A stretch of DNA of 64,000 bases from an uncultured archaeon (GTDB lineage Archaea; Thermoproteota; Nitrososphaeria; Nitrososphaerales; Gagatemarchaeaceae), in NCBI GenBank assembly GCA_963817525.1, contig CAWFOU010000007.1, positions 960,001-1,024,000 on the forward strand, in the 5' to 3' direction. Shown in pieces: positions 16,070 to 41,219 of this stretch; position 1 is the first letter of the stretch, and every line of letters begins with the position of its first letter. The translations under genes were made by a program, and so were the position numbers. The notes below the pieces were generated by a model, which saw nothing but the letters and a program-made list of their open reading frames with translations, had not been told where the DNA came from and did no database searches.

Positions 16070-16101
16070 AGACGAATAATAGTTTTGACGGGGGGACTCG
16101 G
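16070..16101. repeat. Decayed tRNA-Ala att site with arm
   Basis: agacgaataat..gacggggggactcgg resembles 41094-41127; same position relative to the integrase start. Confidence 0.75.
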
Positions 16102-16108
16102 GTCCGAC

Positions 16109-18055
16109 TTACGGCGGGATGCCTACCTTCCTGCAAAAGTCCAGAAAACGAGGGTCGTTCCTCATCGGCGCGTAGAGGGGGTCGATCTTTATTGTAAAGG
16201 GCCAAGAGTGCGTCTCTGCCTGCTGCACCAGCAGCTTGAACGCCTCATCCAGATTGCCAAGCGCGACCTGCATGAATAACTCCCCGCGGAGCAGTAACTC
16301 CCCGCGTAACCGGGAAGACTCCTTCCTGCGGGCGGACATCTCCTCCAGAGCGTCCTCGGCTTGCTTCCTCTTTCCCGCCAGTGCGAACAAGAGGCCCTGA
16401 GAAACGGCGACCATGGGCTCGTCGGGGCCGACGCCGCGGGCTGCATCGACCATCTTCTGCGCTTCCTCGAAATCGTTCCTCGCCATATAGTAATCGGCGG
16501 CGCAGAGGTAGACCTTCGGTTCCTTCGGGTTGAATTCCCTCATCCTTGCGAGGACGTCGCGGGCCAGGGCATCATCGCCGCCCCACGTCGCAGTTGTCGC
16601 GAGCATCTCGCCGGCGCCGAAGGATAGTGGGTCCAGCTCGTAAGCCCTCTTGAACATGAGCAAGGCTTGGTTGAGGGCGCGCATGATGCTGTCCACTACT
16701 CCGAGGGACATGTATGCTTCTGAGAGGTTTGGGTTGATCCGGACGGCGGCCTCGGCCTCGACGAGCGCCGCGTCGAACCGGTCTAGCATGAAATGGACGC
16801 CTGCCATTGACGAGTGGGCTTCCGCGAGGCCCGGGTCGAGCTCCAGAGCCTTCACAGCTGCCGCCTCGGCGTTCTTGGCGGCCGTAAGAAAATCCTCGTA
16901 TCCCATGATCCCTCTCGCGCGCCACGCGTCTGCGAGCCCGGCGTAGCCCCGCGCAAAAGTCGGGTCTTTTGCGACCGACCGCTGGAGGAGGGTCAGCGTT
17001 TCCTTCGTGCTCGCCTCGTTGGTGTCGTAGGAGAGGTGCATCGCCCTGAGGTACAAGGTGTACGCCTCGATATCGTGAGTCTCCTTGCGCGTCTCCCCGG
17101 AGAAGAACCCGGCCGAAAGCGCCGCCGCGACCTTCGAAGCAACGTCGCTCTGTATCGCGAAGATATCGCCAAGCTTGCTGTCGTAGTTTGACGACCAGAG
17201 ATGCTCTTCCGTGCGGGGGTCGATTAGCTGCACCGAAATCCTGATCCTGTCGCCCGCCTTCCTTACGCTTCCCTCGATTACCGACCCGACGCGCAGCTCC
17301 GCTGCGATCTCGGAGATCTTCTTCTCCTTCCTCCTGTAGTTCATGACGGAGGTTCTCGCAATCACCTTCAGCCCCTTGACCTCGGAGAGCCTCGCGATGA
17401 GCTCCTCGGTAAGTCCGTCCGCGAAGTATTCGTCGTTGGGGTCGAAGCTAATGTTCACGAATGGAAGCACGGCCAGCCTTTCTCTCGGTCCTGATTCTTG
17501 ATACCTCGGCTGTCCGCCGGTGGACCGCTCCTCCCCGGGCAGCTTGACCCTGTACACCGCGACAGGCAGCTCGACGTTCTTCAGCTCCACCTCTCCGACC
17601 TTCTCAATGTCAAGCTTGGTCTTGTTCCTGATCTGGTCGAACACCTGCTGGGAGATGCAAACCCCCCCAGGTTCAGCCAGCGGCTCGATTCTTGAGGCAA
17701 TGTTGACGGCGTCGCCGTATATGTCACTAGCTTCGTGGACGATATCCCCTACGTGGATTCCTATCCTCAACTCGAGCTTCCGGGTGGGGGGCACCTCCAG
17801 GTTGCGCTCTTTCATCTTCTGCTGGGTCTCGACGGCACTCAGCACGGCGTCGAGCGCGCTTCTGAACTCAACTAGGAACGCGTCGCCCATCGTCTTCACC
17901 TCGACACCCCCGTGCGTCAGGAAGGTCGGGCGGAGGAGGCTTCTATGCTCCTCCAGAAGCTCCAGGGCCAAAGATTCGTTGGCCTGGGAGAGGCGGGTGA
18001 AGCCTACCACGTCCGTGAACATTATCGCCGCGAGCCTTCTCTCACCACTTGCCAT
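16109..18055 (-). CDS. Class III adenylate/guanylate cyclase with TolB-like and TPR domains
   Basis: RRLAAIMFTDVVGFT, VKTMGDAF, RIGIHVGD, YGDAVNIASRIE; LAVLPFVN..YFADGLTEELI; TPR helices. Confidence 0.93.
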   Translation of the reverse strand: MASGERRLAAIMFTDVVGFTRLSQANESLALELLEEHRSLLRPTFLTHGGVEVKTMGDAFLVEFRSALDAVLSAVETQQKMKERNLEVPPTRKLELRIGIHVGDIVHEASDIYGDAVNIASRIEPLAEPGGVCISQQVFDQIRNKTKLDIEKVGEVELKNVELPVAVYRVKLPGEERSTGGQPRYQESGPRERLAVLPFVNISFDPNDEYFADGLTEELIARLSEVKGLKVIARTSVMNYRRKEKKISEIAAELRVGSVIEGSVRKAGDRIRISVQLIDPRTEEHLWSSNYDSKLGDIFAIQSDVASKVAAALSAGFFSGETRKETHDIEAYTLYLRAMHLSYDTNEASTKETLTLLQRSVAKDPTFARGYAGLADAWRARGIMGYEDFLTAAKNAEAAAVKALELDPGLAEAHSSMAGVHFMLDRFDAALVEAEAAVRINPNLSEAYMSLGVVDSIMRALNQALLMFKRAYELDPLSFGAGEMLATTATWGGDDALARDVLARMREFNPKEPKVYLCAADYYMARNDFEEAQKMVDAARGVGPDEPMVAVSQGLLFALAGKRKQAEDALEEMSARRKESSRLRGELLLRGELFMQVALGNLDEAFKLLVQQAETHSWPFTIKIDPLYAPMRNDPRFLDFCRKVGIPP

Positions 18056-18226
18056 GCCGACTTCTTCATGCTCGCCGGCTCGGTTCCCATAAAGTCGTTT
18101 CGGAGATTGCGCCGCGGGCGCATAATGGTTTCAGGGACTCCCGAGAGACAAAGAGCGGTTCCTCTCCGTCTCCTATGGCGCAACGCCGAGGAATAGCTTA
18201 AATCCCGAGTACGCAAACAAACACTG

Positions 18227-18658
18227 TTGCCGAAGGAGTCTGAGGAGAGACTCGCAAAGATGATAGCGAAAGTGTCGTTATTCTCGAATCTGTCTCAAAA
18301 GCAGCTCAAGAGCATCGCGAAAAGCGGAACCGAACGGGGTTTTGATTCGGGTCACGTGATAATCAAGGAAGGGGAGAAAGGAGTTGGCTTTTACCTGATA
18401 CTTGACGGAAAGGTGGAGGTGCGTAAGAAAGGGAAAATCCTTTCGACACTTTCGGCCGGCGAGTTCTTCGGGGAGATGGGGCTGATAGATGACCAGCCAA
18501 GGTCGGCCGATGTTGTGGCCGTCTCGTCCACGACGACCTTCTGTCTAAGCCCGTGGTCTTTCGCTGGTGCCGTTACGGGGAACCCTGAAATCGCACTGAA
18601 GATGATGAGGGTTCTCATCAATAGGCTGAGAACCAGTAGCAAGGCACTAACCGAATAA
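18227..18658 (+). CDS. Stand-alone cyclic-nucleotide-binding protein
   Basis: IIKEGE, FYLILDGKVEV, GEFFGEMGL..PRSADV. Confidence 0.92.
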   Translation: MPKESEERLAKMIAKVSLFSNLSQKQLKSIAKSGTERGFDSGHVIIKEGEKGVGFYLILDGKVEVRKKGKILSTLSAGEFFGEMGLIDDQPRSADVVAVSSTTTFCLSPWSFAGAVTGNPEIALKMMRVLINRLRTSSKALTE

Positions 18659-18743
18659 CAACACGCCAATCCCTCGCGGCATGTCCTCGCAATTGAGGAG
18701 GCGTTAGTTCTCCCTCATGGGCTGGAACAAGACTCACAACCGC

Positions 18744-18929
18744 CTATGAGCAACAGTGATGTAGACAATCTGGGCATTCACAAGGGCAGGGACACCCACA
18801 ACGACCACATCTTCGTCCTTGGCTGTTCTTTGCTGTTATCTTTATCCACTTATTCTGGACTCCATCCCAGGACCACTCGTATAACTCCTGTGCGGCTTCT
18901 GACCCGTCTGGGGATTCGAGGGTCGACAT
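18744..18929 (-). CDS. Putative Cys-rich microprotein
   Basis: C-terminal CGRCGCPCPCECPDCLHHCCS (metallothionein-like). Confidence 0.5.
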   Translation of the reverse strand: MSTLESPDGSEAAQELYEWSWDGVQNKWIKITAKNSQGRRCGRCGCPCPCECPDCLHHCCS

Positions 18930-19103
18930 TTCCTGTTCTGGCGGTTCTTAGGGACTATTGGGTCTTCGCCTTTTGAAGCGGTTCGTCCTCACAAGGTCAA
19001 TGCGGAATTCCAGCCCGGCTTCGCGGCCTCCTCCAGTTACAAATCTTGTCCGCTTCACCTGCATTCGTTTACGGACGATCGCTCGGCTTGAGCTAGGCCG
19101 ATG

Positions 19104-19511
19104 CTATCGCTTTACTTTTTCAGGGACAATCCCTGTGCTGTATATCGTCATCACGGTGTCCCTGAGGAGGTTCATGTCGTCGAGGCCGAAGTCCGGCTCA
19201 GCCGATATCAACATCACGTTCTTACCGCCGAGGTAGAAGGTCAGCACGTTTAGTCTCTCCCGCTTCACGAACGTGAACTGCATCCCCCCGAAGTACCGGT
19301 CCCAGGTCCTGTCAGTCCCAATCTGTATCGTCAGATTTGCCATCAGCCTGAGATTTTCACTGGCAGGCTCCATGGAGATGATGCCCTTTCTCATCCCCCC
19401 TGCAATCACCCTGCCAGTCTCGTCGAGAACTCCTGCGTACCTGACCCGTCGGTTGAACTTGAAGGCCTGAATGCATAGCTTATCCAGCGGGTAGGTCATG
19501 ATTCCATCCAA
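19104..19511 (-). CDS. Roadblock/longin-like protein (thaumarchaeal type)
   Basis: VRYAGVLDETGRVIAGGMRKGI..YFG....FVKRE...LISAE. Confidence 0.75.
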   Translation of the reverse strand: MDGIMTYPLDKLCIQAFKFNRRVRYAGVLDETGRVIAGGMRKGIISMEPASENLRLMANLTIQIGTDRTWDRYFGGMQFTFVKRERLNVLTFYLGGKNVMLISAEPDFGLDDMNLLRDTVMTIYSTGIVPEKVKR

Positions 19512-19792
19512 GAATCTTCTCGTTCGTTCGGTATAAGACTTGATTGCTCCGCAGTCTTATGGGCTTCGAGCGAGAAGCAGCGGGGAGCCTGTCCATCCAT
19601 GCCTTCTACCACAGCCCAGCCCCCTATTCTCGGGCAATTTGGCCGGTCTGCCAACCTTTGGGAGGTTTCCGGGGGCTTTCGGAATGACTATTTTTGGGAG
19701 ACTTGTCACCGACAGAGTCGTCACCGCGGTGACAGTTCAGCCAGTGACATCTGCCATAACAACTAGTCAATCGTACTCTAACGCGAGTAACT

Positions 19793-20440
19793 ATGTCACA
19801 GTTCGCAAACAAGTGGGACAAGCCAAACAGCAGCGGATTCACAACGAGGATGCGGGATTCTGTAAAGAACCCGGGTCCCTTGAAGCCGAGACTGGACCTA
19901 GCCGTAAGGCAGATCCAAGTCCAAGTCGCAAAGCTCGACGGGACATGCGCAAAGCTGAGGGAGAGGGACGCCTCGATCTTCAACAAGATCGTGTCATCCA
20001 TCCAGAAGCATGACTCTCAGCACGCCTCGGTCTATGCGAACGAACTCTCGGAGATAAGGAAGATGAGCAGGATGGTCACACAGGCCAAACTGGCTCTCGA
20101 GCAGATAACCCTGAGGCTCAACACCGTCACCGAACTGGGCGACATCGTGGTGACCCTCACCCCTGCAATGTCAGTGATTCGCAGCGTCAGGCAAGGGCTT
20201 GTAAGCGTCCTTCCAGAGGCAGAAGGCGAGATCGGAGAGATATCAGGCCTGCTGAGCAGCATCCTGGTGGATGCGGGCACGGTGGGCGGGTACTCGCTGA
20301 ACTTCGAGGCTGCCAACGAGGACGCCGAGAAGGTCCTGGCAGAGGCTGCAGCAGTCGCCGAAAGCAGGATGAAGGAGAAGTTCCCAGAGATTCCCTCTGG
20401 GCTCCCCTCGATGGAAGGCTCGACGGAAAGCACATCGTAG
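19793..20440 (+). CDS. cdvB: ESCRT-III/Snf7-family cell division protein CdvB-like
   Basis: GPLKPRL..YANELSEIRKM..LALEQITLRLNTVTELGDIVVTL..AEKVLAEAAAVAE..EKFP. Confidence 0.9.
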   Translation: MSQFANKWDKPNSSGFTTRMRDSVKNPGPLKPRLDLAVRQIQVQVAKLDGTCAKLRERDASIFNKIVSSIQKHDSQHASVYANELSEIRKMSRMVTQAKLALEQITLRLNTVTELGDIVVTLTPAMSVIRSVRQGLVSVLPEAEGEIGEISGLLSSILVDAGTVGGYSLNFEAANEDAEKVLAEAAAVAESRMKEKFPEIPSGLPSMEGSTESTS

Positions 20441-20681
20441 AGGCGAGAATGGAAAACGTGAGGGGCTTGGACCCGCTTTCGCGGGTCCTCCCCTCCAATC
20501 CTCCTCTTCTCGGACACGATTACAGCGCGAAAAGCATCCCGCCCTTGGGCGGTAAGGATTTGCCCCATCTTTAGCCGCCCGGATTCGGCCCGTGGTTTAT
20601 GCACGCGCCGAGGACACGGTCGACCAGCTGAAGATTGGCGACCTGCAAAGAATTTTAAACAGCGTTGAAGGCTACACGCGC

Positions 20682-20738
20682 ATGGCAAAGTCGAAAAAGG
20701 TCAAGAAGAAGGCTGCAAAAGGAAAGGCAACCAAATAA
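20682..20738 (+). CDS. Putative 18-aa Lys/Ala-rich micropeptide
   Basis: MAKSKKVKKKAAKGKATK; BRE/TATA aaagaaTTTTAAA at ~20647-20659; T-tract at ~20778. Confidence 0.55.
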   Translation: MAKSKKVKKKAAKGKATK

Positions 20739-21013
20739 GGCGCCCTGGGGTTCTTGGAGCGGAATGAGTCCGCCCTGTTTTTTGTCAGCTAGAAGAGGTG
20801 ACAGAGGTCAACCGATGGACTGGCTATCGGCGGACACTCCAAGAATCTGGCCCCCTGAACGCGTCGCTCTGAATACTTGCGAGAAGGACTTCTGCCAACC
20901 TTTTGCGGATTGAACCTCGACCTTTCATAGAGCGAAGAGAATCCATCCGGGTCGGTAGGGGACTAATGGGCGAACACCTAAGTATCCAGCCAGGGAGCGG
21001 CCCCTGAAGAATA

Positions 21014-21325
21014 ATGCCTCAATACGCCCAAATCAAGCTGACCAGTCCCGACCTCGACCAGCTAGAGAGACTTGCGTGGGAGATCAAAGAGATCGCGGAG
21101 AAGACTGGGGTCAAGAGCATAGGTCCGCAACCTCTTCCAACGAAGAGGCTGAAGATCACCACGAGGAAAGCCCCCACGGGCGAGGGCACCCACACGTTCG
21201 ACCATTGGCAGCTCAGGATTCACAGAAGGCTCATTTACATCGAGCCGAACGAAAGGGCGATGAGGCAGATTACGAAGCTGACGATTCCTGAGGACGTCAA
21301 GATAGAGCTCACTCTGACGAGCTAG
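21014..21325 (+). CDS. rpsJ: 30S ribosomal protein S10
   Basis: IKEIAEKTGV..GPQPLPTKRL..RKAPTGEG..RIHRRLI. Confidence 0.95.
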   Translation: MPQYAQIKLTSPDLDQLERLAWEIKEIAEKTGVKSIGPQPLPTKRLKITTRKAPTGEGTHTFDHWQLRIHRRLIYIEPNERAMRQITKLTIPEDVKIELTLTS

Positions 21326-21340
21326 AGTCCCTTACGCGTC

Positions 21341-21709
21341 TCAGCGGATGAATTCTACGCTCGGCAACCCTTCGAACGCCTTGTCCCCCGTCAGGAATTT
21401 CAGTCCCTCTTTCTTGGCGATGTGATATCCCATCGCGTCAGCATATGAGAGCTCAAGTTTTCGCAGCTCATAACGCAACTTCATGGCTGTCTCGACGTCC
21501 AAGAGTGAGAATTCGGTCTCGCGAGCGGAGTAGACTTCCAAGACCTCGTGCGCTGCCCTCGCCCCGTGCACTCTCAAGATGGCGTAGTAAATCTCCATCA
21601 GGTTGAGCCTCGTAAGGACGCCCGTGTTTTTCTCGAAGTAAGGAGCGTATCCGGGGCTGTCGCTGAGGTAGGCTAGGACGGAGTAGCTGTCGTAAAAGAA
21701 CTTAGCCAC
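21341..21709 (-). CDS. PIN-domain toxin (VapC-like)
   Basis: FYDSY, NLMEI, LSYADA and LTGDKAF acidic tetrad. Confidence 0.9.
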   Translation of the reverse strand: MAKFFYDSYSVLAYLSDSPGYAPYFEKNTGVLTRLNLMEIYYAILRVHGARAAHEVLEVYSARETEFSLLDVETAMKLRYELRKLELSYADAMGYHIAKKEGLKFLTGDKAFEGLPSVEFIR

Positions 21710-21917
21710 GCCAGCCTTTCCTCATTTCTTCCTTGGCGGCCTGGAGATCCTCGATGGGATATTTCCCCCTCAGTTCGGTGATGTCGCTCACCTTGGTGAC
21801 CCGAATTTCGACCTCCTCCCCCACACGTAGCCCGTTCCTCTCGGCGGCTTCCTTGGGTATGACGACTCCAAGCGAGTTTCCCCACTTCTTTAGCCGAGCC
21901 TTGGTCTGCACGACCAT
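21702..21917 (-). CDS. AbrB/MazE-family antitoxin
   Basis: KKWGNSLGVVIPK; overlaps the PIN gene. Confidence 0.92.
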   Translation of the reverse strand: MVVQTKARLKKWGNSLGVVIPKEAAERNGLRVGEEVEIRVTKVSDITELRGKYPIEDLQAAKEEMRKGWRG

Positions 21918-22023
21918 GATTATACACGTCTAATTCTAATAGTTAAATGTTTTCCCAAGCGCGCAAAACGCGGCTCAGAACACTCGCAGGCTCAAAGCCT
22001 ATGACAAGAAGAGCGTGATTCAC

Positions 22024-22062
22024 GCCTATTTGGGCGCAAATAGCTCAAATCGGGCTCTACAG
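22024..22062. repeat. 39-bp imperfect direct repeat (copy at 24100-24138)
   Basis: gcctatttgggcgcaaatagctcaaatcgggctctacag vs gcctattcaggcgtaaatagctcaaatcaagctctaaag. Confidence 0.8.
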
Positions 22063-22199
22063 CGATTCTCAAAACACGTTCGGCGCCTGAGCGCCAAGGC
22101 AGGATTTAGACGGGAAGCACGGGAATCAGCCTGTATCCCTCTGAACCACCCAAGGGTCGATGGCACGCTTATATCACGCGGAATCCGGATTAATGGAGC

Positions 22200-22901
22200 G
22201 TGAACTGTCCCAAGTGTGGCACCGCCAACAGCGATGATGCGGTCTTTTGCAGTTCGTGCGGCGCGAGTCTGAAGGCTTCCAGCCCACCAACGACATCTCC
22301 GTCGCCAGGGGCCGCCCAGCCGGGAGGCAAGATGGATGAGATGAAGGCCGTGTTCAACAACGCGATAGCGCTGGTCAAGGACCCAGTGGCCTACATGACG
22401 CAAAACAAGGGCCAGTCTGTTCCCGTGAACTCCCTGATGATAAACTACGTTGCAATCCTCGCGCTCGTGCCGCTCGTCGGAAGGATCATCGGCGATCTCT
22501 TGTTCTACGGCGGCGCCGGTGTCGGATATTCGATTGCCGGGGCGATTGTCTCCTACATTCTTGACATAATCTCCGTCTTCGTGATCGGGATTGTAATCTG
22601 GAAGCTAGGGCCATCTTTCAATACGGTAACGGATCAGGCCAAGGCAACCGTTCTGGCGGCTTATGTGTACACACCGGTCTTCCTCATCGGAATATTGAAC
22701 ATCGTGCCGGCCCTCGGCTATCTCGCGATTTTGGGGTTGCTCTATGGCCTGTACATCCTCTACCGCGGGCTTCCGATATTGCTGAACACTCCGGCCGACA
22801 AGACGGTGATCTACGTGGTCGCGGTGCTCGTCGTCTCGATTATCATCCTCGCCGTTATATCGCTGATAATCGGTGGACTCGACGCGGCCGCCCTCAGATG
22901 A
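22200..22901 (+). CDS. Zinc-ribbon + Yip1-like membrane protein
   Basis: CPKCG..FCSSCG; five TMs with AAYVYTP and YGLYILYRGLP. Confidence 0.88.
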   Translation: MNCPKCGTANSDDAVFCSSCGASLKASSPPTTSPSPGAAQPGGKMDEMKAVFNNAIALVKDPVAYMTQNKGQSVPVNSLMINYVAILALVPLVGRIIGDLLFYGGAGVGYSIAGAIVSYILDIISVFVIGIVIWKLGPSFNTVTDQAKATVLAAYVYTPVFLIGILNIVPALGYLAILGLLYGLYILYRGLPILLNTPADKTVIYVVAVLVVSIIILAVISLIIGGLDAAALR

Positions 22902-23051
22902 GGAGCCGGTCCCAACTTCTAGTTCCTCAAACTAAGGTCGCCAGCAACCGCAGAAAGCTCGAAAAAACAGCAATAATTGTCATACGTGGGTTGTGGAATG
23001 AGTGCCAAGGGCAGATTTGGGCTTGCATGTTCAGCTTCGAATTGCGCCGTT

Positions 23052-23426
23052 CTATACGGTCAGAACAAGGTAGACTGAGAGCAACAGGGCGATTGCGAAC
23101 ATGCTGAGAGCAAGGGTTGTCTCTATGCTCTTGCTCGGTTCGTAGCGTCCTGTCTTGATTCTTTGCTGGTTCATGGTAAACCTGCTTAGTGCCAGCAGCT
23201 GCATGAGCCCTCCTGCTATGACCAGGGCGATTCCGATTATCGACGAGAGGTCATAGGAGGTGGTCGGAGCCGAGGGAACCAGAGACTTCACGATCAGATC
23301 GAACTTGGCCACCACGAAACCCAAGCCCATCACCGCGATGCTTGTACGTACCCACGCGAGAAAAGTTCGTTCGTTTGCGAGATGATCTCTTGCCGTAGAC
23401 GCTCTTTCGCCCGAGTCCGAAGCCAA
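23052..23426 (-). CDS. DUF202/YidH-family membrane protein
   Basis: RDHLANERTFLAWVRT. Confidence 0.92.
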   Translation of the reverse strand: MASDSGERASTARDHLANERTFLAWVRTSIAVMGLGFVVAKFDLIVKSLVPSAPTTSYDLSSIIGIALVIAGGLMQLLALSRFTMNQQRIKTGRYEPSKSIETTLALSMFAIALLLSVYLVLTV

Positions 23427-23825
23427 CTACGCGCCGACCGCCGACAGGACGATCGGTTCTAGCCCGGCGATGTTCTTGACCAGGTCCTCCGGGATGTCGT
23501 GACGTTCCCTGAGATATTCGGGGGAGTTGTACGATACTAGCACCTTTCCGCTTGAATCCTCGGAGACTAAGACCTTGAGGGGGAAATCGATTGCAACGGT
23601 TGGTGCAGCTATCATCAACGGAGTACCTGCCTTGGGGTTCCCAAAGATTACCAATAGAGTAGGATTCATCTCCAGCCCTGCCTTGGCGGCATCTCCACTG
23701 AAGTCTATTCTAGAGAAGATTGTCAAGCCGCGTGAGGTGATGGCCGACTCTAGCCCAGCAACGGTCTCCGCGAAGGGATACTTGCTGACCACCTGTACAA
23801 CTCCATTCACGGCGGTCGAGGCCAA
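23427..23825 (-). CDS. DUF302-family protein
   Basis: FGNPKAGTPLM..AIDFPLKVLV. Confidence 0.9.
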   Translation of the reverse strand: MASTAVNGVVQVVSKYPFAETVAGLESAITSRGLTIFSRIDFSGDAAKAGLEMNPTLLVIFGNPKAGTPLMIAAPTVAIDFPLKVLVSEDSSGKVLVSYNSPEYLRERHDIPEDLVKNIAGLEPIVLSAVGA

Positions 23826-24139
23826 ACCAGCAATAGAACCCTATTTTCGTCCTATTAAATGACGAGGCTTTGATGAGTATACTGCAGGGGCAGGTGGGAT
23901 TCGAACACTCCATTGCCCAAGACCGTACAGACCAATGAAGATTGTTTGTGCTTGTATTCGGGCCGAATTAGCAACGGTATGACTCAATCTAGCGACGAAT
24001 GCGCGAGGGGTTCTAAGGACTCGAACCCTAACGAAGACGGCCCGACGAGACTCGAAACCCTCCCAACTGAAGACAGTTACCACAATAAGTCTGAGTCAAG
24101 CCTATTCAGGCGTAAATAGCTCAAATCAAGCTCTAAAGT

Positions 24140-24165
24140 TGTGGACCGGGGGGGACTCGGACCCC
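24140..24165. repeat. att core, copy of tRNA-Ala 3' end
   Basis: 26 bp identical to 41107-41132. Confidence 0.93.
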
Positions 24166-24288
24166 GGGGAGTCTGGACCCCAATCTTTTCCTGCGTATTG
24201 GGTTCCATTGTATCCTAATCTGATATGAGCCGGGCTTAAAAATACCACGGATCCCCAGTTTCTTTCGGCCATTACGGCTTACCAAGTA

Positions 24289-24333
24289 CGAGCCCGACGG
24301 GACCCGCCCCTGAACAGGTTCTCAAAGTGGATT
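24289..24333. repeat. 45-bp direct repeat (copy at 26209-26253; partial copy at 27561-27581)
   Basis: 41/45 identity; the reverse complement contains a tRNA-like 3' end CCCGTCGGGCCCG. Confidence 0.85.
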
Positions 24334-24494
24334 GCCGCGGAGCAACCAACCAGGTTCGAATCGTCCAGGGGAGATTTTGAAATGACTAGTTCACATATCG
24401 AAATAACTAGTTCAACAATTCCTTGACAGCGGCCTCCGCGCCAGAATATCATACTAAACAGTTAATTATTAGGCAAAGCAACCCTAACCTCGCA

Positions 24495-30514: not shown

Positions 30515-30526
30515 CAAGATATCGAC

Positions 30527-31731: not shown

Positions 31732-32256
31732 TTGCCAACAGGGTGTATATTGGCATTAGACCTATTTATATCCATTGTATAGCCAGTTGATATCCATGTA
31801 TCTTAATCAAGCAGAATCTCATAGTTCGAGCTGCCGTGGTCGAGACGACGCCCTGGAAGAAGGGCCGGAAGGACTGACGAACCGCTAACCAACACGCATC
31901 TTAGCGAAACCAACTACATCCTTACCACGCCGCAATCCAACTGAAGAGCCGTGAAAGTACTAATTCTTCATTCGCCCTAGCCGTGGTAACGGTTGACCCA
32001 GTCATTCACAGGGGTCGTCCGGCCTTGGGTCGGTCCGCCTTCTAAGCAAGTATCCCGTTGGCGCGAGGCCACCACTCGCTTGCGAATCCAGCCGATTGCA
32101 CTTGTATTACATTGTAAGCCATTGCTATATTAGCACGGGCATCACAAGAACTTGCGATGGGCTTTCAGAAGTTGCTTGCTGCGTTCCCTCTAATCCTCCT
32201 GTCGATTGGGATGACGAGCATTCCGATTGCAGCCGGCTTGACGACAGGATTTCGAT

Positions 32257-33300: not shown

Positions 33301-33341
33301 AACATTAATAGCGATAGGATGTATTGCGCCGTGAAAAAACA

Positions 33342-33926
33342 ATGGCCAACGGCAGAAAGGCGCTCGCGCTTGTCGCGATTGTGATTCTGGTTGTAGGCGC
33401 CCTCAGCGTTTACTCCATTGTGGCGACGACCAAGTCGGTCGGACAAGGAAAGACAATCTCGTCGCTTGAATCGACGCTGAGTTCGATGGATTCACATCCG
33501 TTCATTTCTGTGAGCACTACAACGATCACCCTTTCTTCGACGGACACTCGACTTCCTTCTTTCCCATGGAACAGCAGCGCCGCGCAATATATGGCCGGTG
33601 CGAACTTTTGCAATGCCGGTTATGAGGGAGCTTGTTTCTCTAGCGCGTTCAGTAATGCTTACGTGTTCACTTGCCTCAACCAAGCCGCGACTCCACAGGG
33701 GTGCACGGTACGAATGAACGCGACCAACTCGATATCCTTCGTCGTCGTCACGGTCTGGTATCCTTACTACAACTCGACTGCGGGTGCGCCCGCTTGGGCA
33801 GATTGTGCTTGGAATAATCCCGGAGGAGGGGGTCCCAGCCAGTTCTATGCTGCGTTTGCATCCTACTGCTTCAAATTAGGTGGAAACGCCTTCATACTTA
33901 CCTCTCCACCTCTTCCCACAGCTTAG
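33342..33926 (+). CDS. Membrane-anchored Cys-rich protein
   Basis: N-terminal TM; NAYVFTC..QGC..YPYYNST..WADC..YC; homolog of 50848-51405. Confidence 0.75.
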   Translation: MANGRKALALVAIVILVVGALSVYSIVATTKSVGQGKTISSLESTLSSMDSHPFISVSTTTITLSSTDTRLPSFPWNSSAAQYMAGANFCNAGYEGACFSSAFSNAYVFTCLNQAATPQGCTVRMNATNSISFVVVTVWYPYYNSTAGAPAWADCAWNNPGGGGPSQFYAAFASYCFKLGGNAFILTSPPLPTA

Positions 33927-34123
33927 GGACCTTGGTGCTGTTCTCCATCACCTTGAATTCATGGAAAGCCCTTTGTATTGCAAATATAACGAGTCCAAGC
34001 CGACAACTCTAGGCTGAGACTCGTGAAGATATTGCGGAAGGGCAATCGTGGCTCTTGGACATGCGTCCCCCCTCGTATAGGCGCTGAAGTATCCAAAAGT
34101 GATTTTGCCTTGAGAAGGACTTG

Positions 34124-34672
34124 CTATTGGCCTTGCTTGGAAAAGCGAATCTTCAGTATGTTGCCCTTGACCTCTATCTGGAGTTTCCCTCTCGACAGAA
34201 CTTCGTAGGCCCCCGAGATATAGCTCTTCAGAAAATAGGACCACTTCTCACCGTACCCGTGGCGCAAGGTCATTCGTTCTGAGTTCTCGGACACGTTTCC
34301 TTCGACCGTGAACCACCCACCTACCTCCGCAAGTATGCTCACCAAGAACTCAACGAACGTCATCTGGCAGCCTGCGCTCTCCAAAAGTTCGAGCACCAGA
34401 GAATAGTTCTTCTTGCCCAGCGCGAACCCGTCCACTTCCAAGGAGTCGAGGTTCGCCGTGCTCATTATCGAAGCAAAGGTCTCACAGCCGAGCGCGATCC
34501 TGCCCAAGGCAGGAATCAGTGGATCGACCTTCAACGCTCTGGTCAGGACTTGCGCCACGTACATGTTTTCGCTGACATGAAGCCGTCGTGCAGTGCGTGC
34601 AAGCTCGAGTGTTAGACGCTCGTCAAGCCGGAACGCCTTGACTTTGGTATGGCTCGCCGTAGCCATTTCCAT
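34124..34672 (-). CDS. Hypothetical protein (RHH-like N-terminus, V4R-like C-terminus)
   Basis: KVKAFRLDERL..VSENMYVAQVL; LRHGYGEKWSYFL. Confidence 0.7.
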   Translation of the reverse strand: MEMATASHTKVKAFRLDERLTLELARTARRLHVSENMYVAQVLTRALKVDPLIPALGRIALGCETFASIMSTANLDSLEVDGFALGKKNYSLVLELLESAGCQMTFVEFLVSILAEVGGWFTVEGNVSENSERMTLRHGYGEKWSYFLKSYISGAYEVLSRGKLQIEVKGNILKIRFSKQGQ

Positions 34673-35345
34673 GAAAGAAACAGAGGAATCTCAATGCAGG
34701 TTCTATTTAGACTTGCCGTATTCACCGCAAAAATACAGCTTGGTGAACATTATTGCGTGAATCGCAACCGCGTTCCAATGTCACATTTCCTACCAGCAGG
34801 ATACCCAAGGTCGTCTTCACGAGCGTGCGCTCTATTATCTCGTCGGGTGATTTGGGCGATTCGAGAGGGGCATAGGTCGCAGGAAGATTTAAGGTTGACT
34901 GGATGAGTCAGGAAACTTGCGCAATTATCGTCTGGAAAGGTAACGACCCTAAACCCAACGAGGGCGTAAGAAGAGGAGACAACCTCATTGATTTTGTCAT
35001 AGGTTAACAATGCTGAAGAATAAAAATTGCGGTAAGCGTTTACCGTTATGAAGTTCCACGGTCAATATTCAGCTTCTGACGCTCATTTTAGCGACATTTC
35101 CATCACGAACTTCGGAACGGTAAACGTGTACAAATTGCGGAGTTCTTTAGAGTTCCCACGCTAGAGGCTCGCGGTTCCCGTGCAACAGCGAACGTCTGGC
35201 AAGTACTCTCCTAGAATCTTCCTCTGTCCTCCTGCTCAGCTTTTCTGCGTCGGCGGCTCCGGCTTACGCGAGAATGAATTGCGTCCCTTCTGGGCGCCTC
35301 GAAGGTATCTATCCTTTTGACAGTGTGTGCGCTCCCTGCCAAAAC

Positions 35346-35480
35346 CTAGGAGGCGAGCTTCCTGCTCCTCATGGCAAGATAGCCAGTTGCGATGGTGAAG
35401 ATCACGGCGACTACCGCTACTCCATACAGTAGGCCCGAGCTCACTCCTGTGGAGGATGTGGACGTGATTGTAGTTGCCCT
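35346..35480 (-). pseudogene. Orphan C-terminal membrane-anchor fragment
   Basis: ATTITSTSSTGVSSGLLYGVAVVAVIFTIATGYLAMRSRKLAS* with no upstream body. Confidence 0.6.
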
Positions 35481-36417
35481 TCCAGGTCAGCCTTCACCTG
35501 GAGAATGGTTTCCTGGAGAGGCTAATGGCAAGGCGGGCAGCCTCTGCCATCAGTATTGACCTGGAAATCGGTCCAAAAAACACACAAGGGGGATGGTATT
35601 AACTAACCCGCAACTCTCTACCGTCCTCTGTCTCCGGCTTCGCGTCATTGGCGCTATCGCAAGCCGATCAAGCTATGGTCGATTTGCTCATACCCGCATC
35701 AGAGGCATGTGATGCCCACCTGAGCGAACCTCTTACGACGCGTTCGAGTGCCTTGTGCCACCATCCACAACCATCCGCGGCTGGGACTAAACTGAGACCA
35801 GACTCCTTACCACGACACGCCAGCTCATTTCTGCCGGGCAGGGACGGATGTGCTTCGACTCAGATGAGCTTGTCCTCAGCTTGGCGAGCGCCCGCTCCGT
35901 CCGATTGTTGGCTTCGTGGCTGACGACCAGGACCATCGAGGTACTCGAGGGCGATAGCTACTTCCAAGTTGAAGAAACCGCGGACGCCAGGGCAGTGCCC
36001 CCTAAGGCTCATTGTCAGGGCGTCGAGGTCGACCGGAGACTTGGCCATCCTCTTCGAAAACCGATAATGCAACCCGGGTCCAACGAATCTCTTGCCCGGC
36101 TCAGCGTGCAAGGGCCTTTCGGTCCACAGTCGTTCCTCAGAATGCAGCAATCGCGCAGCTCTGCCGCTTGGGCATAGCCGAAGCCACTGCCTCTGGGACG
36201 GCACACTCCTACTGGAGTGGGCCTCTGTTTTTGTTTTGGGGGGGTTACTTTTTGCTAAGAATAGCAGTGGAGAAGTAGGCGGGTCTATTTAACGCGGCAA
36301 AATCGGGACCATTCCTATCGCGTTTTCCATAACCTCGGACACAGCCGAACCTAGCATACCTTGAGTTGAGAGCCAGTCAAGGCCTAACGACGACGCAAAA
36401 GCGCCGTTATCGAAGGC

Positions 36418-36780
36418 AAAGCGGACATCTTCAGGGGTCTGGACGGCGCCAAGGCGGACATTCGGGTCGAAAGTGGACATCGGGAGGCGGTTCTGACGGT
36501 GAATGTGGACATCAGGGGTGCCAAAAACGGGTCGCGGTTGCAACATCCATGTCCACCTTCGCGCGCCCAGGGGCGGCAAATGTCCACCTTCGGGCGGTCG
36601 GCGAGGGCGGAGTGGTCGTCGATGTCAACCTTGAGATCCAAAGGCTTGAGATCCAAGGGCCAGGCTTGACATTTTGGGCTCCAAGGTTGACATTTGTGGT
36701 TCGAAGTGAAGGACAGCTTCACGTGTCCACCTTGCCCCGGTAATGGGCGTGCAATGTCCACCTTCATGGATGTGGACATG
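36418..36780. repeat. 12 copies of a 12-bp motif AAGGTGGACATT in both orientations
   Basis: Copies at 36418, 36451, 36470, 36502, 36548, 36579, 36621, 36662, 36683, 36722, 36753, 36769. Confidence 0.85.
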
Positions 36781-36817
36781 GGTCGCTTCGGGGCAGGAGC
36801 CAACCGAGGGGGCTGCT

Positions 36818-37337
36818 AATGCTCGACCCTCGAGCATTATGCATTTGGAGTAATGCGCAACCCTTGCGCACTAGCGCCTTCATGGCAATACGCAACCCTT
36901 GCGCATTAGGCAACCCCGTCTTCTCGGGAAACGCATGATTTGGCACGTGAGGAATGTCTGTGGGACCTGCGAGGCTTCTCGAACGCACCCGTTCACGACC
37001 AATGCACAACCCTTGTGCATTAGCTCGCTTGGGCAAAGGCACAACCCTTGTGCATTGACCAGTCCGAGAGGTTTCACCCCGGCCTCCGCAAAGCTGTACG
37101 CCAAGACCCGTTCCACTATGGAGCGTAACTTTTGAAGATCAAATCGGGCGGGTCCGGCAGTCGCATCATATCATGGGGCTAAGGGTGCTAGAGCTCCCCG
37201 TTAACCAGGAGGTGCAGGATTTGGTGGATACAGGGGAAAATCGATGACTTGTACGAGACACTCACAATTCTGCTCACGGCTGATGCCCAACCCTTGGGCA
37301 TTGCGGCGCATGGGATAATGCCCAAGCCTTGGGTATT
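36818..37337. repeat. 21-bp palindromes AATGnnCAA-CCC-TTGnnCATT at 34-35-bp period
   Basis: Copies at 36818, 36852, 36887, 37001, 37036, 37282, 37317 (plus 38787 and 38822). Confidence 0.9.
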
Positions 37338-37734
37338 GGCTAGCCCTATACGGCCACCGCCCACGTTCCGCCGATGGTAGGGCCAATCCTAAAGCATCCT
37401 CTTGAAGGGCGACGCCCCGCGCAGCTTTACCTGCCGATCGAGAAGCAGCGTGCCAGCGTCGACGTCGAACCGGCCTATCCGCCAAAGGCCAGTGCTCTTG
37501 ATGAGGCGTGCGCGAGCTGAGCGAGAGGTTCGCCTCGCGAGAACCCTATTTTCAGTTCAAGCACTAAAGGCGAAAAGGGTGCGACTGCCGATCTCTCGAT
37601 GAAAGCGTACGATGTCGACCTTCCCGGTGTTCTCTGAAGAAGACAGAAACTGTCGCGAGAGCGAAAGGTGGCGTAGGAACCGAACCCCGAAGAACGATTA
37701 GCTTAAGCCCGATTCGTTCCAGGTTACCGCGCAA

Positions 37735-38193
37735 TTGTCCGGGGATCTCAAATCAAGAGTAAAGTTGCCTGAAGGGTTCAGATTTCTGCGCGAGGGCGAC
37801 ATAGAACGACCATTTCGGACCGGCGACAAAACGATGGACAAGTATGCGCTCAGAGACTACCACGCTTGGAGCCTCCTGCCCAACGAGCTCGTGATCCTGT
37901 ATGAGGTCGCAGGTGATGTTGCGGGCATAATAGAGATGACGGTCGACGAAGACCACATAATGATCGAGATGGTGGCGCGGAACACCCTAGTTGCGGCTTC
38001 TGGCGTTGGGACAAGACTCATGAGCCTCGCTGAAAATGTCTCGAGGCAGCTGGGCAGGAGCGAAATCCGATTGGAATCCCTTGACGGCGTGGTTGCGTGG
38101 TATGACGGGCCTCTGGGGTACGAAGAGTACACCGAGAGATTCTACGATCCTGAGTTCGGCTGGCTGACCCCGAAGAGGAAGTTCATGCGGTGA
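37735..38193 (+). CDS. GNAT-family acetyltransferase
   Basis: IEMVAR..GVGTRLMSLAE..IRLESL..VAWY..LGY. Confidence 0.8.
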   Translation: MSGDLKSRVKLPEGFRFLREGDIERPFRTGDKTMDKYALRDYHAWSLLPNELVILYEVAGDVAGIIEMTVDEDHIMIEMVARNTLVAASGVGTRLMSLAENVSRQLGRSEIRLESLDGVVAWYDGPLGYEEYTERFYDPEFGWLTPKRKFMR

Positions 38194-38410
38194 CCTTGGC
38201 CTTCTGCCTCATCTTGCCTATGACCTTTCGCGACACAGCGTAGACGCCGGTATCTGGGTCGGACCTCACGATGTCCAGATAGTGCTGGACGACCTTGTGC
38301 TCGCGCAGGTAGTTGTCGATCACGCGGGACTTGTTGACTCCCTGGGCTATCGCCATGCTCTCCAGAGCGTCATCCAGCTCGTCAGTCAGCGAGATTGAGA
38401 TTTTCCTCAT
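38183..38410 (-). CDS. Ribbon-helix-helix protein
   Basis: MRKISISLTDELDDALESMA..VNKSRVIDNYLR; ATG at 38410. Confidence 0.85.
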   Translation of the reverse strand: MRKISISLTDELDDALESMAIAQGVNKSRVIDNYLREHKVVQHYLDIVRSDPDTGVYAVSRKVIGKMRQKAKVTA

Positions 38411-38786
38411 GCTACCACGGTCATACTCTGGTAGCAGAGCGCTATATAATCTTGCCGGGAGTCTCTTCCGTTGATTCCCGAATGGACCTTGGCTGAGGCC
38501 AGAGATTCCTTTGCCAAAGAGCCGAAAGAAGAGCAGCCGAGGGAGCCAAGGGGCAAACCATCGGAGAGAGTGTTCTCGAAGGTACTCACAGCAGAGAAAC
38601 ATCGACAACTTTGGGAAGACTGCTTTCAGCGCCCAACGAGCTGTGTCCAGATTGACTCCGCGAGGGCTGCGCCAAGGAAGGGTCTGGCTGAGTACCCCTG
38701 TTTACGAAAGCGAAGATGGGCCTTCCTAGCTTCTAGTCGCAATCTTTCTCGCCTCGTTAGACGCCCAGAAAGCAACTCCTCAGACT

Positions 38787-38842
38787 AGTGTGCAACCCTT
38801 GCATATTAGCGCCTCTAGGGCAATGTGCAACGCTTGCACATT
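38787..38842. repeat. Further pair of 21-bp palindromes
   Basis: agtgtgcaa-ccc-ttgcatatt and aatgtgcaa-cgc-ttgcacatt, 35 bp apart. Confidence 0.85.
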
Positions 38843-39152
38843 AAGCTCGCATGGGCTCATGAGCAACCATGAGCTAATGAGGGTGATTCGCAAGCAGCCA
38901 AACGTCTCGCGAGGAAGCCAGAGGCCGAGCCAAGGACTCGGGAGGGAAAATCGGTCCAAAAAAAATAATGAGAGGAGATAAGAGAATATCCGCAACGAGT
39001 CCGTGCGACCATTTCGACTCCCCCAAAATGAGCGGCCTCGACAGCCGCCGCTAGTAACGGTCGGTCTCCGATTCGTCGGTTTCGGTCAGTTCAGAGAGAA
39101 AATAAATTTAGACAGCATCAAACACCACTGGAATATTTAACGGCCCACTGTC

Positions 39153-39283
39153 AGCTTGCCAAGCCTCCCACTAGGTTGCCACTCAAAGTCCTCCATTTGG
39201 CAACCTCATGACTCATTTTGGCAACCTGTCTCCTCGATTTGGCAACGTTGAATGGCAAGGTTGCCAAAACTAAATGGCAACCT
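39153..39283. repeat. Iteron-like TTTGGCAACCT repeats
   Basis: Direct copies at 39196, 39217, 39238 (21-bp period) and 39273; inverted copies at 39153, 39173, 39258. Confidence 0.85.
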
Positions 39284-39399
39284 GGGTTATCCTCCCGAAA
39301 TGGAGGAGACAGCCCAGAGCTGTCCCACTACCTGTCGAACTTTAGGAGTTAGAGCCTCTTGTTAAAAGCTCCAGACCACAGGGAAATCAGGAAATCGAA

Positions 39400-39618
39400 A
39401 TGGACTCCCGTAACGATGGCTCTGTCGACCTGCGACCATTCAAGGAGAAGCTAAAGAAAAGACTGCCATCCGAGAGTTTCGTCCTGATTGACCTCCTCAA
39501 CGAGCCGGATTCGATGCCGTCCACCCGGGCCGAGGTCCTGATCCCCCACTACCTCCAGAGACTGGAGAGAGAGCTTGAGAAGTACGAATCGAAAGGGCCT
39601 CTCGTCTTGAAGGCCTGA
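39400..39618 (+). CDS. Small hypothetical protein (possible directionality factor)
   Basis: 72-aa ATG ORF convergent with and abutting the integrase stop. Confidence 0.7.
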   Translation: MDSRNDGSVDLRPFKEKLKKRLPSESFVLIDLLNEPDSMPSTRAEVLIPHYLQRLERELEKYESKGPLVLKA

Positions 39619-39619
39619 C

Positions 39620-41041
39620 CTAGGCCGTCCTCAGCCCTATCACAACCTTCTCATCGGGCAGGTCCCGCTTATAGTCCCACCCCTGCTCTATCCACTGCTC
39701 CAGCTCGCCGATGGGAACGACCTTCTGCGTCCCCTGCTTGAGCCCCAGCATCTGTTTGGACTTTTCGTGGATAAGCTCCTGCAGCTTCTCCAAGGTGAGT
39801 TGCGTGACGTCGCCCAACGCTTGGATCTCCGCTTCGGTGTACCCGAACATCTTCAAAGCCTCGACCCTCGCGGTGTTCACAACCTCGTCCCTGCTGATCG
39901 TGGGCTGGGCGAGCGTCTCGAGGTGCTTCGCGGCGGCCTGGGAGTAGGCTTGCCTCATCCTCTCCGCCACCTCCTTGGGCAGCCCCTTGTTCACGCTGTA
40001 CACCGACTCGATGTTCCCCACGTGCCCCATCCAGAACTCCCTCCACTCCCTCAGGATCAGCCTCTCGTACTCCGCGTTCATCATGCAGACCTCGAAGTAC
40101 CTCCTGAGGACGTACGGCCTCCAGGTGAAACCGGCGGCCACGATTGCCTGTTTGAGGCCGACGCAGACCTTGTTCGTGCTGATGTAGCTAGACTTTTGGT
40201 TCTTGATGGCCCCTATGAGCGGAGATTCGGGCGTCAGCTTCTCTCCCGGTAGGCGCACCTCCTCTAGGACTCCCACCCTCTCCCTCCCGTGGGACCAGGT
40301 CTTCCTGGTGTACACCTTCGTCCGCATCCTCCACTCGAGGTAGTTCTTGAGGTACTGACAGGCCTCCGGGGGAAGGAACACAAAGTAGGTGTGCCCCGCC
40401 TTGCTTATCGCCCTCCTGCACACCACCTGGGCGGGCGTGTTGAGGAAGGAGACCGTCCCTCCCACCGCGTTCCCGGCCCCGTCGAGTAGGTTCTCGATCT
40501 TGAGGTCGGGGAAGTCGGCCAGCTTGAGCCCGTCGTCCCCCACCATGTTTCCCTGCACCTCGGGCCTGAACCCGCAGAAGGCGATGAGGGAGATCGAGAC
40601 CTTGGCCCTGATGTCGGCCACGTCGAGTATCCTCCTGAGCTCCTGGCGGGTGGGAGGCACCTCGTTCTCGTACTTGTTGTAGTCCGAGGCGCCGTAGATC
40701 CTGATGCTCTTGGGCGTCTCCATGTCGTTCCAGATCATCCAGCTCTTGACCGCCTTGACGTAGCCCTCGATGCCGGAGCCCTTGATCCCCTTCTTCTCAA
40801 AGTGGGTGATGAGGTCGTGGAGGAAGAACTTGGCCTGCTTCGTGTCCATGGTGACCAGCTCCTTCGGCGTGACCTTCAGCTCCTCGCAGGCGTAGGAGGC
40901 CTTGCGGAAGTAGACGGAAGCGGTCGTTATCGAACCGCGCTCCAGCGCCTCCACCCACCTCCTGAAATTCTCGTCCTCCCCCAGATAGTGGAAGTAGGGC
41001 GACTTCGCTAGACTCAGACTCCTCATCTTTCCATTTCTCAC
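39620..41041 (-). CDS. Tyrosine recombinase/integrase (intact)
   Basis: GFRPEV (R), PYVLRRYF, FWMGH, VYS (Y); adjacent to the att site and tRNA. Confidence 0.93.
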   Translation of the reverse strand: MRNGKMRSLSLAKSPYFHYLGEDENFRRWVEALERGSITTASVYFRKASYACEELKVTPKELVTMDTKQAKFFLHDLITHFEKKGIKGSGIEGYVKAVKSWMIWNDMETPKSIRIYGASDYNKYENEVPPTRQELRRILDVADIRAKVSISLIAFCGFRPEVQGNMVGDDGLKLADFPDLKIENLLDGAGNAVGGTVSFLNTPAQVVCRRAISKAGHTYFVFLPPEACQYLKNYLEWRMRTKVYTRKTWSHGRERVGVLEEVRLPGEKLTPESPLIGAIKNQKSSYISTNKVCVGLKQAIVAAGFTWRPYVLRRYFEVCMMNAEYERLILREWREFWMGHVGNIESVYSVNKGLPKEVAERMRQAYSQAAAKHLETLAQPTISRDEVVNTARVEALKMFGYTEAEIQALGDVTQLTLEKLQELIHEKSKQMLGLKQGTQKVVPIGELEQWIEQGWDYKRDLPDEKVVIGLRTA

Positions 41042-41108
41042 CTGTTTGTTGCTTTTGGTGAGCGACAGGCGCTTTAAGGCGGGGCGGGGACTCAGACGAA
41101 TAATGGTG

Positions 41109-41219
41109 TGGACCGGGGGGGACTCGGACCCCCGACCTGTCCCAATCTGGACTCTTGGTTTGCCAAGGGATTGGACGACGAATAGTCGTCTCTATCCTAC
41201 CAAACTAGACGACCGGCCC
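41109..41219 (-). tRNA. tRNA-Ala(GGC) with two introns (27/28, 21 nt; 37/38, 16 nt)
   Basis: GGGCCGG/CCGGTCC-A stem with G3:U70; both introns form BHB motifs; 74-nt mature cloverleaf. Confidence 0.9.

Follow-up and report, generated by a model that had tools for sequence, protein, structure and literature searches.

A tRNA-Ala(GGC) gene as the probable platform of a tandem array of integrated elements in a soil archaeon of the Nitrososphaerales

The DNA analysed here (the window: 64,000 nucleotides (nt), G000:C7:960001-1024000) belongs to the genome of an uncultured archaeon of the Nitrososphaerales, G000, a soil archaeon of the ammonia-oxidiser type. It holds a tRNA-Ala(GGC) gene behind whose 3' end stands a row of direct copies of a short attachment (att) core. 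These copies bound blocks of genes, named E1, E2, E3a, E3b and E4, some of which carry an integrase gene, or the remains of one, of a single family. The genome is metagenome-derived (2.82 Mb in 15 contigs, 61% GC; estimated at 95% complete with 8.75% contamination), and the runs in which window sequence was found (14 rows in a run search, spread over 8 studies and all of them Logan contigs) come from soil and peat. Between about 10 and 48 kb of the window, GC content is 0.51-0.57 in most bins and up to 0.62, compared with 0.61 for the genome.

The tRNA gene reads as an intron-bearing tRNA-Ala(GGC) for which splicing is predicted. As read from the sequence, it has an acceptor stem GGGCCGG/CCGGUCC with a G3:U70 pair, the marker of alanine tRNAs, together with a loop UUGGCAA, a regular D arm and a T arm GGGGG-UCCGAGU-CCCCC. 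It exceeds the normal length of a tRNA by 37 nt, and two introns are predicted, one (about 21 nt) after position 27 and the other (about 16 nt) where the anticodon loop ends on its 3' side. ARAGORN reported no tRNA in the window with intron mode on or off, and Rfam did not match the gene at the gathering score. Full-length homologues with 88-96% identity occur in six genomes of the same genus, among 41 related genomes searched. Across the seven aligned copies, each from a different genome, the exon positions are invariant, and the hairpin of the first intron, after the D arm, varies both in length and in sequence and shows compensating changes, as an intron would. In silico removal of the 21 and 16 nt leaves a 75-nt tRNA that ARAGORN calls Ala(ggc). 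Brute-force cutting yielded a tRNA call of some kind for 1003 of the 28906 cut pairs tried (Trp(cca) 146 times, Ala(ggc) 121 times); because other cuts yield other identities, the call after cutting is a consistency check only and is not discriminating. ARAGORN found no other Ala(GGC) gene in the genome; Ala(cgc) and Ala(tgc) are present elsewhere. In intron mode it lists only 41 tRNA genes for G000, several with an unusual length, despite the 95% estimated completeness. Many tRNAs of this genome probably have introns at unusual positions and are missed, as tRNA-Ala(GGC) is here.

The 22-nt core GTGTGGACCGGGGGGGACTCGG, sought with up to three mismatches, matches the window three times, always on the forward strand: without mismatch at 41106 and 28457, and with one mismatch at 24139. 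None of 100 shuffles contained any match. By blastn, positions 41107-41132 equal 24140-24165 (26/26), and 41106-41127 equal 28457-28478 (22/22). A fourth, degenerate copy near 16087 lies in a single collinear blastn match of 241 nt between 15866-16101 and 40889-41127 (75.9%, E 9e-38), which spans the start of the integrase gene, the arm and the core. The four att copies in one orientation proposed in the initial annotation are thus borne out, three by pattern and blastn and the one at 16087, in degenerate form, through the 241-nt homology. At least three direct copies in one orientation, each derived from the target gene's 3' end, make up the arrangement of a tandem array.

Inverted repeats accompany the cores. 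The 16-bp sequence ATTATTCGTCTGAGTC stands inverted, and perfect, at both ends of E1 (41089-41104 on the reverse strand, 28482-28497 on the forward strand), and a third copy with one mismatch lies on the reverse strand at 16065-16080, beside an integrase stub. A degenerate version of the pattern, allowing up to two mismatches, has three matches in the window, a number reached in 0 of 100 shuffles. At the ends of E2 there is instead a 10-bp inverted repeat, GGGTCCAGAC, at 28439-28448 (forward) and 24171-24180 (reverse), with no further copies in the window. The inverted-repeat arms therefore differ between E1 and E2, and the cores are common to both. If the ends of E1 were joined via one core, the resulting attP would consist of repeat, core and repeat.

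The integrase gene of E1 adjoins the tRNA gene and is intact; it starts 65 nt past the core, which lies outside the gene. Its product, P0001, is, on model and profile evidence, a divergent tyrosine recombinase from a clade without Pfam recognition. P0001 and P0002 matched no Pfam family at E<=0.01, PF00589 included, and P0001 has no NCBIfam match and no significant PHROG match. Its 219 homologues, many of them named 'site-specific integrase', come from Nitrososphaerota and Bathyarchaeia, and their names place G000 in Nitrososphaerota/Nitrososphaerales; a few (38-44% identity) carry a precomputed PF00589. The AlphaFold model of P0001 (mean predicted local distance difference test score 83.4) has the two-domain tyrosine recombinase fold. 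Foldseek gave 19 matches to the PDB at E<=0.001, with XerA of Pyrococcus abyssi (4a8e) first at E 3e-7; the matches listed include XerA, IntI, Brujita Int, XerH, Tn1549 Int and Cre, and the sole non-recombinase among them is the phage phi3T repressor complex 9rgl. A profile built from 21 family members also matches 4a8e (E 7.7e-7) and aligns RPYVLRRYF on TPHQLRHSF, the HxxR box, with Y310 replacing the first His. R159, K214, Y310, R313 and Y348 are invariant in the 21 members and H340 nearly so; K214, H340 and Y348 were assigned by motif position, and the XerA alignment as printed stops before these residues. By motif and profile the family thus has the R...K...HxxR...H/W...Y residues of tyrosine recombinases, and after the catalytic Tyr there follows a conserved C-terminal extension of about 100 residues.

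The two other integrase copies of the array are incomplete. The open reading frame (ORF) in E2 is 46% identical to P0001 over residues 13-236, with no homology beyond. It retains the first Arg and the Lys region and lacks the part with YxxR, H and Y. It matches the NCBIfam XerA model at E 1e-5 (25.2 bits, against a curated cut-off of 220) and the PHROG 1 integrase at E 5e-4. As its sequence reads, E2 retains its ends but not a functional enzyme, the catalytic half being gone. The stub in E4 is about 45 residues long; 15878-16009 matches residues 4-47 of P0001 at 66%. With identities of only 46% and 66%, the copies are separate arrivals and not duplications. Three cores had initially been described as followed by a homologous integrase in intact, truncated or fragmentary state. 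This holds for 41106, 28457 and 16087, respectively, and the homology search found no integrase of the family behind 24140. That decay increases with distance from the tRNA is likewise upheld, the intact copy being the one beside the tRNA. An intact integrase thus stands next to an att site in one element, and the others are decayed and still att-bounded, as in cis-mobilizable elements (CIMEs). Further members or stubs of the family lie elsewhere in the genome, behind tRNA-Ile(GAT) and, as a stub, at C7:~84.1k behind what by eye is a tRNA-like 3' end.

Table 1. Features of the tRNA-Ala(GGC) locus, in window coordinates
Feature	Position	Strand	Basis or content
tRNA-Ala(GGC), two predicted introns, attB platform	41109..41219	-	read from sequence and conservation
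att core, tRNA 3' end, attL of E1	41106..41132	+	pattern and blastn
E1 proximal arm, 16-bp inverted-repeat half ATTATTCGTCTGAGTC	41089..41104	-	
E1, cryptic integrated element, 12.6 kb	28479..41105		cores and inverted repeats
Intact E1 integrase P0001, 473 aa, divergent tyrosine recombinase	39620..41041	-	open ORF, fold, profile
E1 cargo: conserved 72-aa ORF	39400-39618		
E1 cargo: nine 23-nt palindromes	36818-38844		
E1 cargo: IS240/IS6-type transposase	30853-31731		
E1 cargo: C39-like peptidase			
E1 cargo: GNAT			
E1 cargo: RHH protein			
att core 28457-28478 (attR of E1, proximal att of E2) with E1 distal inverted-repeat half 28482-28497	28457..28497	+	
E2 remnant, 4.3 kb	24166..28456		cores and inverted repeats at ends; truncated integrase, HTH_10 regulator, TetR and SDR module
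Truncated E2 integrase ORF, homology only in 27753-28394	27696..28505	-	matches P0001 residues 13-236
att core, attR of E2	24139..24165	+	pattern and blastn
E3a, block without integrase	22063..24139		zinc-ribbon/Yip1 protein, DUF202, DUF302
Arm, about 90 nt, heading E3a next to core	24049-24139		
E3b, block without integrase	16121..22062		PIN, second ribosomal S10, cNMP-binding protein, adenylate cyclase-TPR
Second, shorter arm copy heading E3b, without adjacent core	22016-22062		
Degenerate att copy (~16087-16120) with E1-like proximal arm	16030..16120	+	collinear homology
E4 integrase stub, residues ~4-47, in-frame stop	15878..16020	-	66% identity to P0001
Separate insertion on tRNA 5' side, 4.3 kb	41220..45564		ends in 20/24 copy of tRNA 5' end at 45541-45564

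E1 is probably still excisable, given its intact integrase, its identical 22-bp cores and its perfect 16-bp inverted repeats; its mobility is read from these features. GC content within E1 is 0.51-0.57, below the 0.61 of the genome. Modules resembling E1, with integrases 36-53% identical, occur in at least three other places in the genome (C8:18-19.8k, C7:141.8-146.1k and C1:1153.4-1154.9k). None of the 10 E1 ORFs tested against PHROG had a match, and in a search for signs of a virus or plasmid in E1 and in the other blocks, none of 18 ORFs matched a PHROG at E<=0.001; E1 has no recognisable virus gene. The nine palindromes (AATGCGCAACCCTTGCGCAyTAG) are mostly paired 34-35 nt apart, near the RHH gene, and are likely to be operators or origins; the E1-like modules at C8:18-19.8k and C7:141.8-142.9k conserve the region that holds them. 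At 35339-35474 lies a short repeat (about 90-135 nt) of which several contigs of G000 carry at least 11 more copies, 76-86% identical. Outside the window, 219 kb away, another tRNA-Ala core with an E1-type distal arm (72 nt, 90%) lies at G000:C7:1220262-1220332, 150 nt past tRNA-Arg(TCG), where neither a tRNA-Ala body nor an integrase is near. Beyond it, short stretches like those of E1 occur in the same order at 1224.9k, 1235.6k and 1244.6k.

The SDR and TetR module of E2 (24374-26198) is 97.8% identical to C1:777263-779088 and is flanked by 45-nt direct repeats at 24289-24333 and 26209-26253. A deletion variant of the module is seen in one contig from run X2, where 24291 is joined to 26212. 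Contig depth over the module is 20-68, with many variants, compared with 3-6 around it.

The stretch behind 24140 was split into E3a and E3b on account of its two arm copies. The arm of E3a has a homologue immediately behind the tRNA in a related genome, G018, and one in an arm and core of a further relative, G020. It was detected in only 3 of 23 genomes of the genus at E<=0.01, and within G000 at this locus only. In E3b, the S10 paralogue at 21014-21325 on the forward strand, beside the PIN gene, shares 82.5% identity with the copy at C7:273072-273380 and, at the amino acid level, 92% with a G020 copy that also adjoins an arm and core. Three further relatives (G022, G006 and G008) have one S10 each, with 82-83% identity, and the same query found none in G018. 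The adenylate cyclase-TPR gene at 16109-18055 (reverse strand) has seven further paralogous loci in G000, with 31-60% identity. The distal end of E4 was not found: below 15878 there is neither a further core nor a partner for the inverted-repeat half at 16065-16080. A 564-residue ORF at 14091-15785 (forward strand) with three internal repeats of 170 nt (14385-15121) adjoins the integrase stub and may be the last cargo of E4; it matches Head_binding weakly, short of the cut-off (E 1.8e-4). The island's outer limit can be placed only approximately, at about 7-10 kb, because the synteny of the PRTase and DUF6899 genes is mostly lost. These genes are near the tRNA in G008 only, 5 kb off and separated from it by genes for a Na/H exchanger and a P-type ATPase, and were absent from its vicinity in the other four genomes tested.

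Relatives show the same tRNA in other states. In G018 (locus L013), 17753-17869 matches window 24049-24165 and 17838-17957 matches 41101-41219, so that the tRNA is joined directly to the arm, without E1 or E2, and the site is empty for both. On sequence comparison, this is the state that would be expected before E2 and E1 arrived. Two of the six relatives fetched, G006 and G020, have a family integrase (34-36% identical) directly behind the same tRNA, and the site is thus either empty or differently occupied in these genomes. Comparison across relatives had been put forward at the outset as a way to refute serial integration, through identical contents and a lack of empty-site alleles. The contents were found to differ, and the G018 tRNA to be joined to the sequence that here lies behind the core at 24140.

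Three of the relatives have arrays of their own. G018 has further cores in the same orientation at 11530, 9759 and 344, and the blocks between them, without a family integrase, encode Nramp, an ABC transporter, a plastocyanin-like protein and a catalase-peroxidase. In G022 a second core in the same orientation lies at 3522, 4.1 kb from its tRNA. Contig 7 of G020, a different contig from that of its tRNA, holds an arm with a core, the S10 paralogue and a further core; its cores lie in the same orientation at 3784 and 8760. G018 and G022 have in common a module of 186 nt around one core (L013 11475-11659 and L017 3467-3651, 85% identity), and the blocks that flank it differ. The module consists of arm, core and about 115 nt with an 18-nt perfect palindrome, CGCCCCTTGCAAGGGGCG, and is also present in G020 (L030 8760-8918). 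ARAGORN found no tRNA in the G018 and G022 modules; in a relaxed setting it gave two weak calls for G022 and none for G018.

Nine metagenome loci with related integrases were also compared. A complete tRNA-Ala stands in front of the integrase in two (L022, GGC; L026, UGC), and two others (L020 and L021) have only the core, behind sequence that is not a tRNA. No core precedes the integrase in L025 and L027, and the remaining three loci are cut at a contig end. The integrase of L020 is 92% identical to that of E1, and this locus suggests an E1-like element at an inner array position or in another context.

The assembly can be compared with contigs (Logan) of four runs, X1, X2, X14 and X6, placed on 22500-42400 at a depth of about 3-6x; such contigs drop rare forms. 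One contig of X1 (record 2, 23722-24599) bridges the core at 24140 and one of X2 (record 23, 40964-41592) bridges the junction between integrase and tRNA, each with 0 differences, evidence against a misassembly at either repeat. Misassembly at the repeats had been named beforehand as what would undo the array, and two of the repeat junctions are now crossed by independent contigs. Pieces of E1 with 0-3 differences also occur, in patchy cover, in runs of two other studies (X14 and X6).

The array is very probably the product of tandem accretion, with the 3' end of tRNA-Ala(GGC) serving as attachment site for elements of soil Nitrososphaerales that carry divergent tyrosine integrases. An incoming element would recombine with the tRNA-proximal core. 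Its integration would restore the 3' end of the tRNA and push earlier elements outward behind a displaced copy of the core, giving, in the sense of the tRNA, the order tRNA, E1, E2, E3a, E3b, E4. The older elements would then decay, E2 to its ends, E3a and E3b to blocks without an integrase, and E4 to an arm and a stub of about 45 residues. Serial site-specific integration by one integrase family into one tRNA 3' end, as the initial annotation proposed, is thereby sustained. From the layout we infer the order of arrival, the present mobility of E1 and any mobilisation of older blocks, with a strict age order resting on three points. As first suggested, the intact integrase might excise any att-bounded block; E1 and E2 have the core in common and differ in the repeats that flank it.

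Several observations weigh against accretion or against parts of it. In principle, new elements could enter at any core, and position need not equal age; GC content has no age gradient. Both E3a and E3b lack an integrase, and simple decay does not explain the repeated arm. The core at 16087 is by itself within chance (12 nt exact; local score 24, against shuffle maxima of 22-27), and this copy is credible only because it lies inside the 241-nt collinear homology. Among the longest contig records listed, none bridges the core at 28457, and one contig starts inside it, at 28474. Core joints 41106/28457, 28457/24140 and 41106/24140 were not found in the Logan contigs, which is uninformative at their low depth and with rare forms dropped. 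The relatives compared are different species, and no polymorphism between empty and occupied sites was seen within a species.

It could be that the array is false, made by assembly or binning that joined the contigs of different strains at short repeats. A metagenome-derived genome with 8.75% estimated contamination, cores that are themselves repeats and the missing bridge at 28457 would all fit such an origin. The window, however, lies inside a 1.28-Mb contig, the repeats measure only 22-26 nt, the core at 24140 and the integrase-tRNA junction are each crossed by an independent contig without differences (X1 record 2 and X2 record 23, respectively), and three relatives have comparable arrays, so an artefact is very improbable. 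The truncated and fragmentary integrases invite a different doubt, namely that they are halves of 'suicidal' integrases of the SSV type, whose gene contains attP and is split by integration. The longest ORF calls, 27696-28505 and 15840-16205, do cross cores. However, the core lies outside the intact gene, 65 nt ahead of its start; homology in the truncated copy begins at residue 38 of its ORF, past the core; the ORF over 16087 and the integrase stub use different frames; and no C-terminal integrase piece was found anywhere in 15-28 kb. With attP not inside an ORF and no Int(C) piece, a split integrase of this type was rejected and has next to no likelihood.

The blocks without an integrase allow a reading in which there is no graveyard of elements at all. 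The 3' end of the tRNA would act like attI, and blocks of arm and core would be units mobilised in trans by resident integrases, for example that of E1, forming an independently evolved, integron-like platform for gene capture. Such cassette capture would account for integrase-free blocks headed by the same arm of about 90 nt (twice in the window, twice in G018 and once in G020), for cargo that differs with each arm-headed block (Nramp, ABC transporter, plastocyanin-like protein, catalase-peroxidase, Yip1, S10), and for the 186-nt module that G018 and G022 share around one core amid unlike block contents. It is nevertheless unlikely. The arm was found in only the 3 of 23 genomes and, in G000, only at this locus; the blocks are multi-gene, with genes on both strands; three of them clearly came with their own integrase; and the arm copy at 22016-22062 has no core. 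Neither circular nor empty junctions were found in the low-depth contigs, which is uninformative for this reading as well. An alternative reading of the arm is that it is old trailer sequence that was copied along.

The 5' side of the tRNA gene carries a second insertion, independent of the 3' array. It is low in GC, lies between the tRNA and a pyrophosphatase gene, and encodes an AsnC-type HTH protein, an HTH_45 protein and a DAGK/YegS-like kinase. The pyrophosphatase gene (window 45631-46227) is the 5'-side neighbour of the tRNA in all six fetched relatives. It stands about 110 bp from the tRNA in G008, G006 and G022, which lack a 5' insertion; in G018, G020 and G017 an insertion of about 0.9 kb, with a 24-27-nt 5' repeat, occupies this side.

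Tandem accretion as proposed here has close counterparts. Passages of PMC5704250 describe tandem accretion with decay to CIMEs in bacterial islands. The islands related to ICESt1 and ICESt3 of Streptococcus thermophilus that are treated there resemble this locus in several ways: the att repeats are direct, share an orientation and stand at a target gene's 3' end; a functional element neighbours decayed ones that lack an integrase and keep their att sites; and the integrases have a common specificity and are only distantly related. In contrast to ICESt1 and ICESt3, the host here is archaeal, no conjugation genes were recognised and the target is a tRNA with two predicted introns. Parts of PMC6563490 (Krupovic et al. 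2019) describe thaumarchaeotal elements with XerC/XerD-like tyrosine integrases and short att sites, 57% of whose integrations are in tRNA genes, including intron-bearing ones and mostly at the 3' end. 'Cryptic integrated elements' with cargo genes, tandem proviruses and tandem integration in Thaumarchaeota are described there too, as is the formation of arrays by archaeal tyrosine-recombinase elements that re-use one site. An account in PMC8371274 tells of the same array formation in archaea and of integrase genes lost after integration. Compared with the elements in those parts of Krupovic et al. (2019), the present locus has at least five blocks at one tRNA, graded integrase decay and a separate 5' insertion.

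The integrase itself resembles archaeal XerA and the non-suicidal integrases of the pNOB8 type in fold and in a gene that stays whole after integration. The best matches of P0001, in sequence and in structure, are the XerA proteins of Pyrococcus abyssi (4a8e) and Thermoplasma (5hxy). Unlike XerA, to which it is only 15-17% identical, P0001 has no PF00589, has Tyr in place of the first His of HxxR and has an extra C-terminal domain of about 100 residues. With integrons the locus has in common a row of sites in one orientation that separates cargo blocks beside a tyrosine recombinase gene, and IntI (2a3v) is among the structural matches. The sites, however, are derived from a tRNA and are not of the attC type, and there is no single platform integrase with a promoter. 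The initial label 'integron-like' does not fit: no resident platform integrase captures promoterless cassettes, and blocks of 2-12.6 kb carry several genes on both strands, with three integrase genes or remnants, three blocks having come with their own integrase.

The mechanism of array formation is already well known. Because tandem accretion has been described in both bacteria and archaea, the locus adds a new and rather complete example, not a new mechanism, and leaves the known picture of array formation unchanged. If the blocks were indeed mobilised in trans, it would mean a gene-capture platform in soil Thaumarchaeota. As it stands, this is a clean and well-bounded case of a tRNA gene that gathers foreign DNA in a soil thaumarchaeon, with at least 25 kb lying 3' of the gene and 4.3 kb lying 5' of it. 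E1 is a candidate active element with defined attL, attR and inverted repeats, and its integrase clade may offer an experimental handle for integration tools in an archaeal group that has no genetic system.

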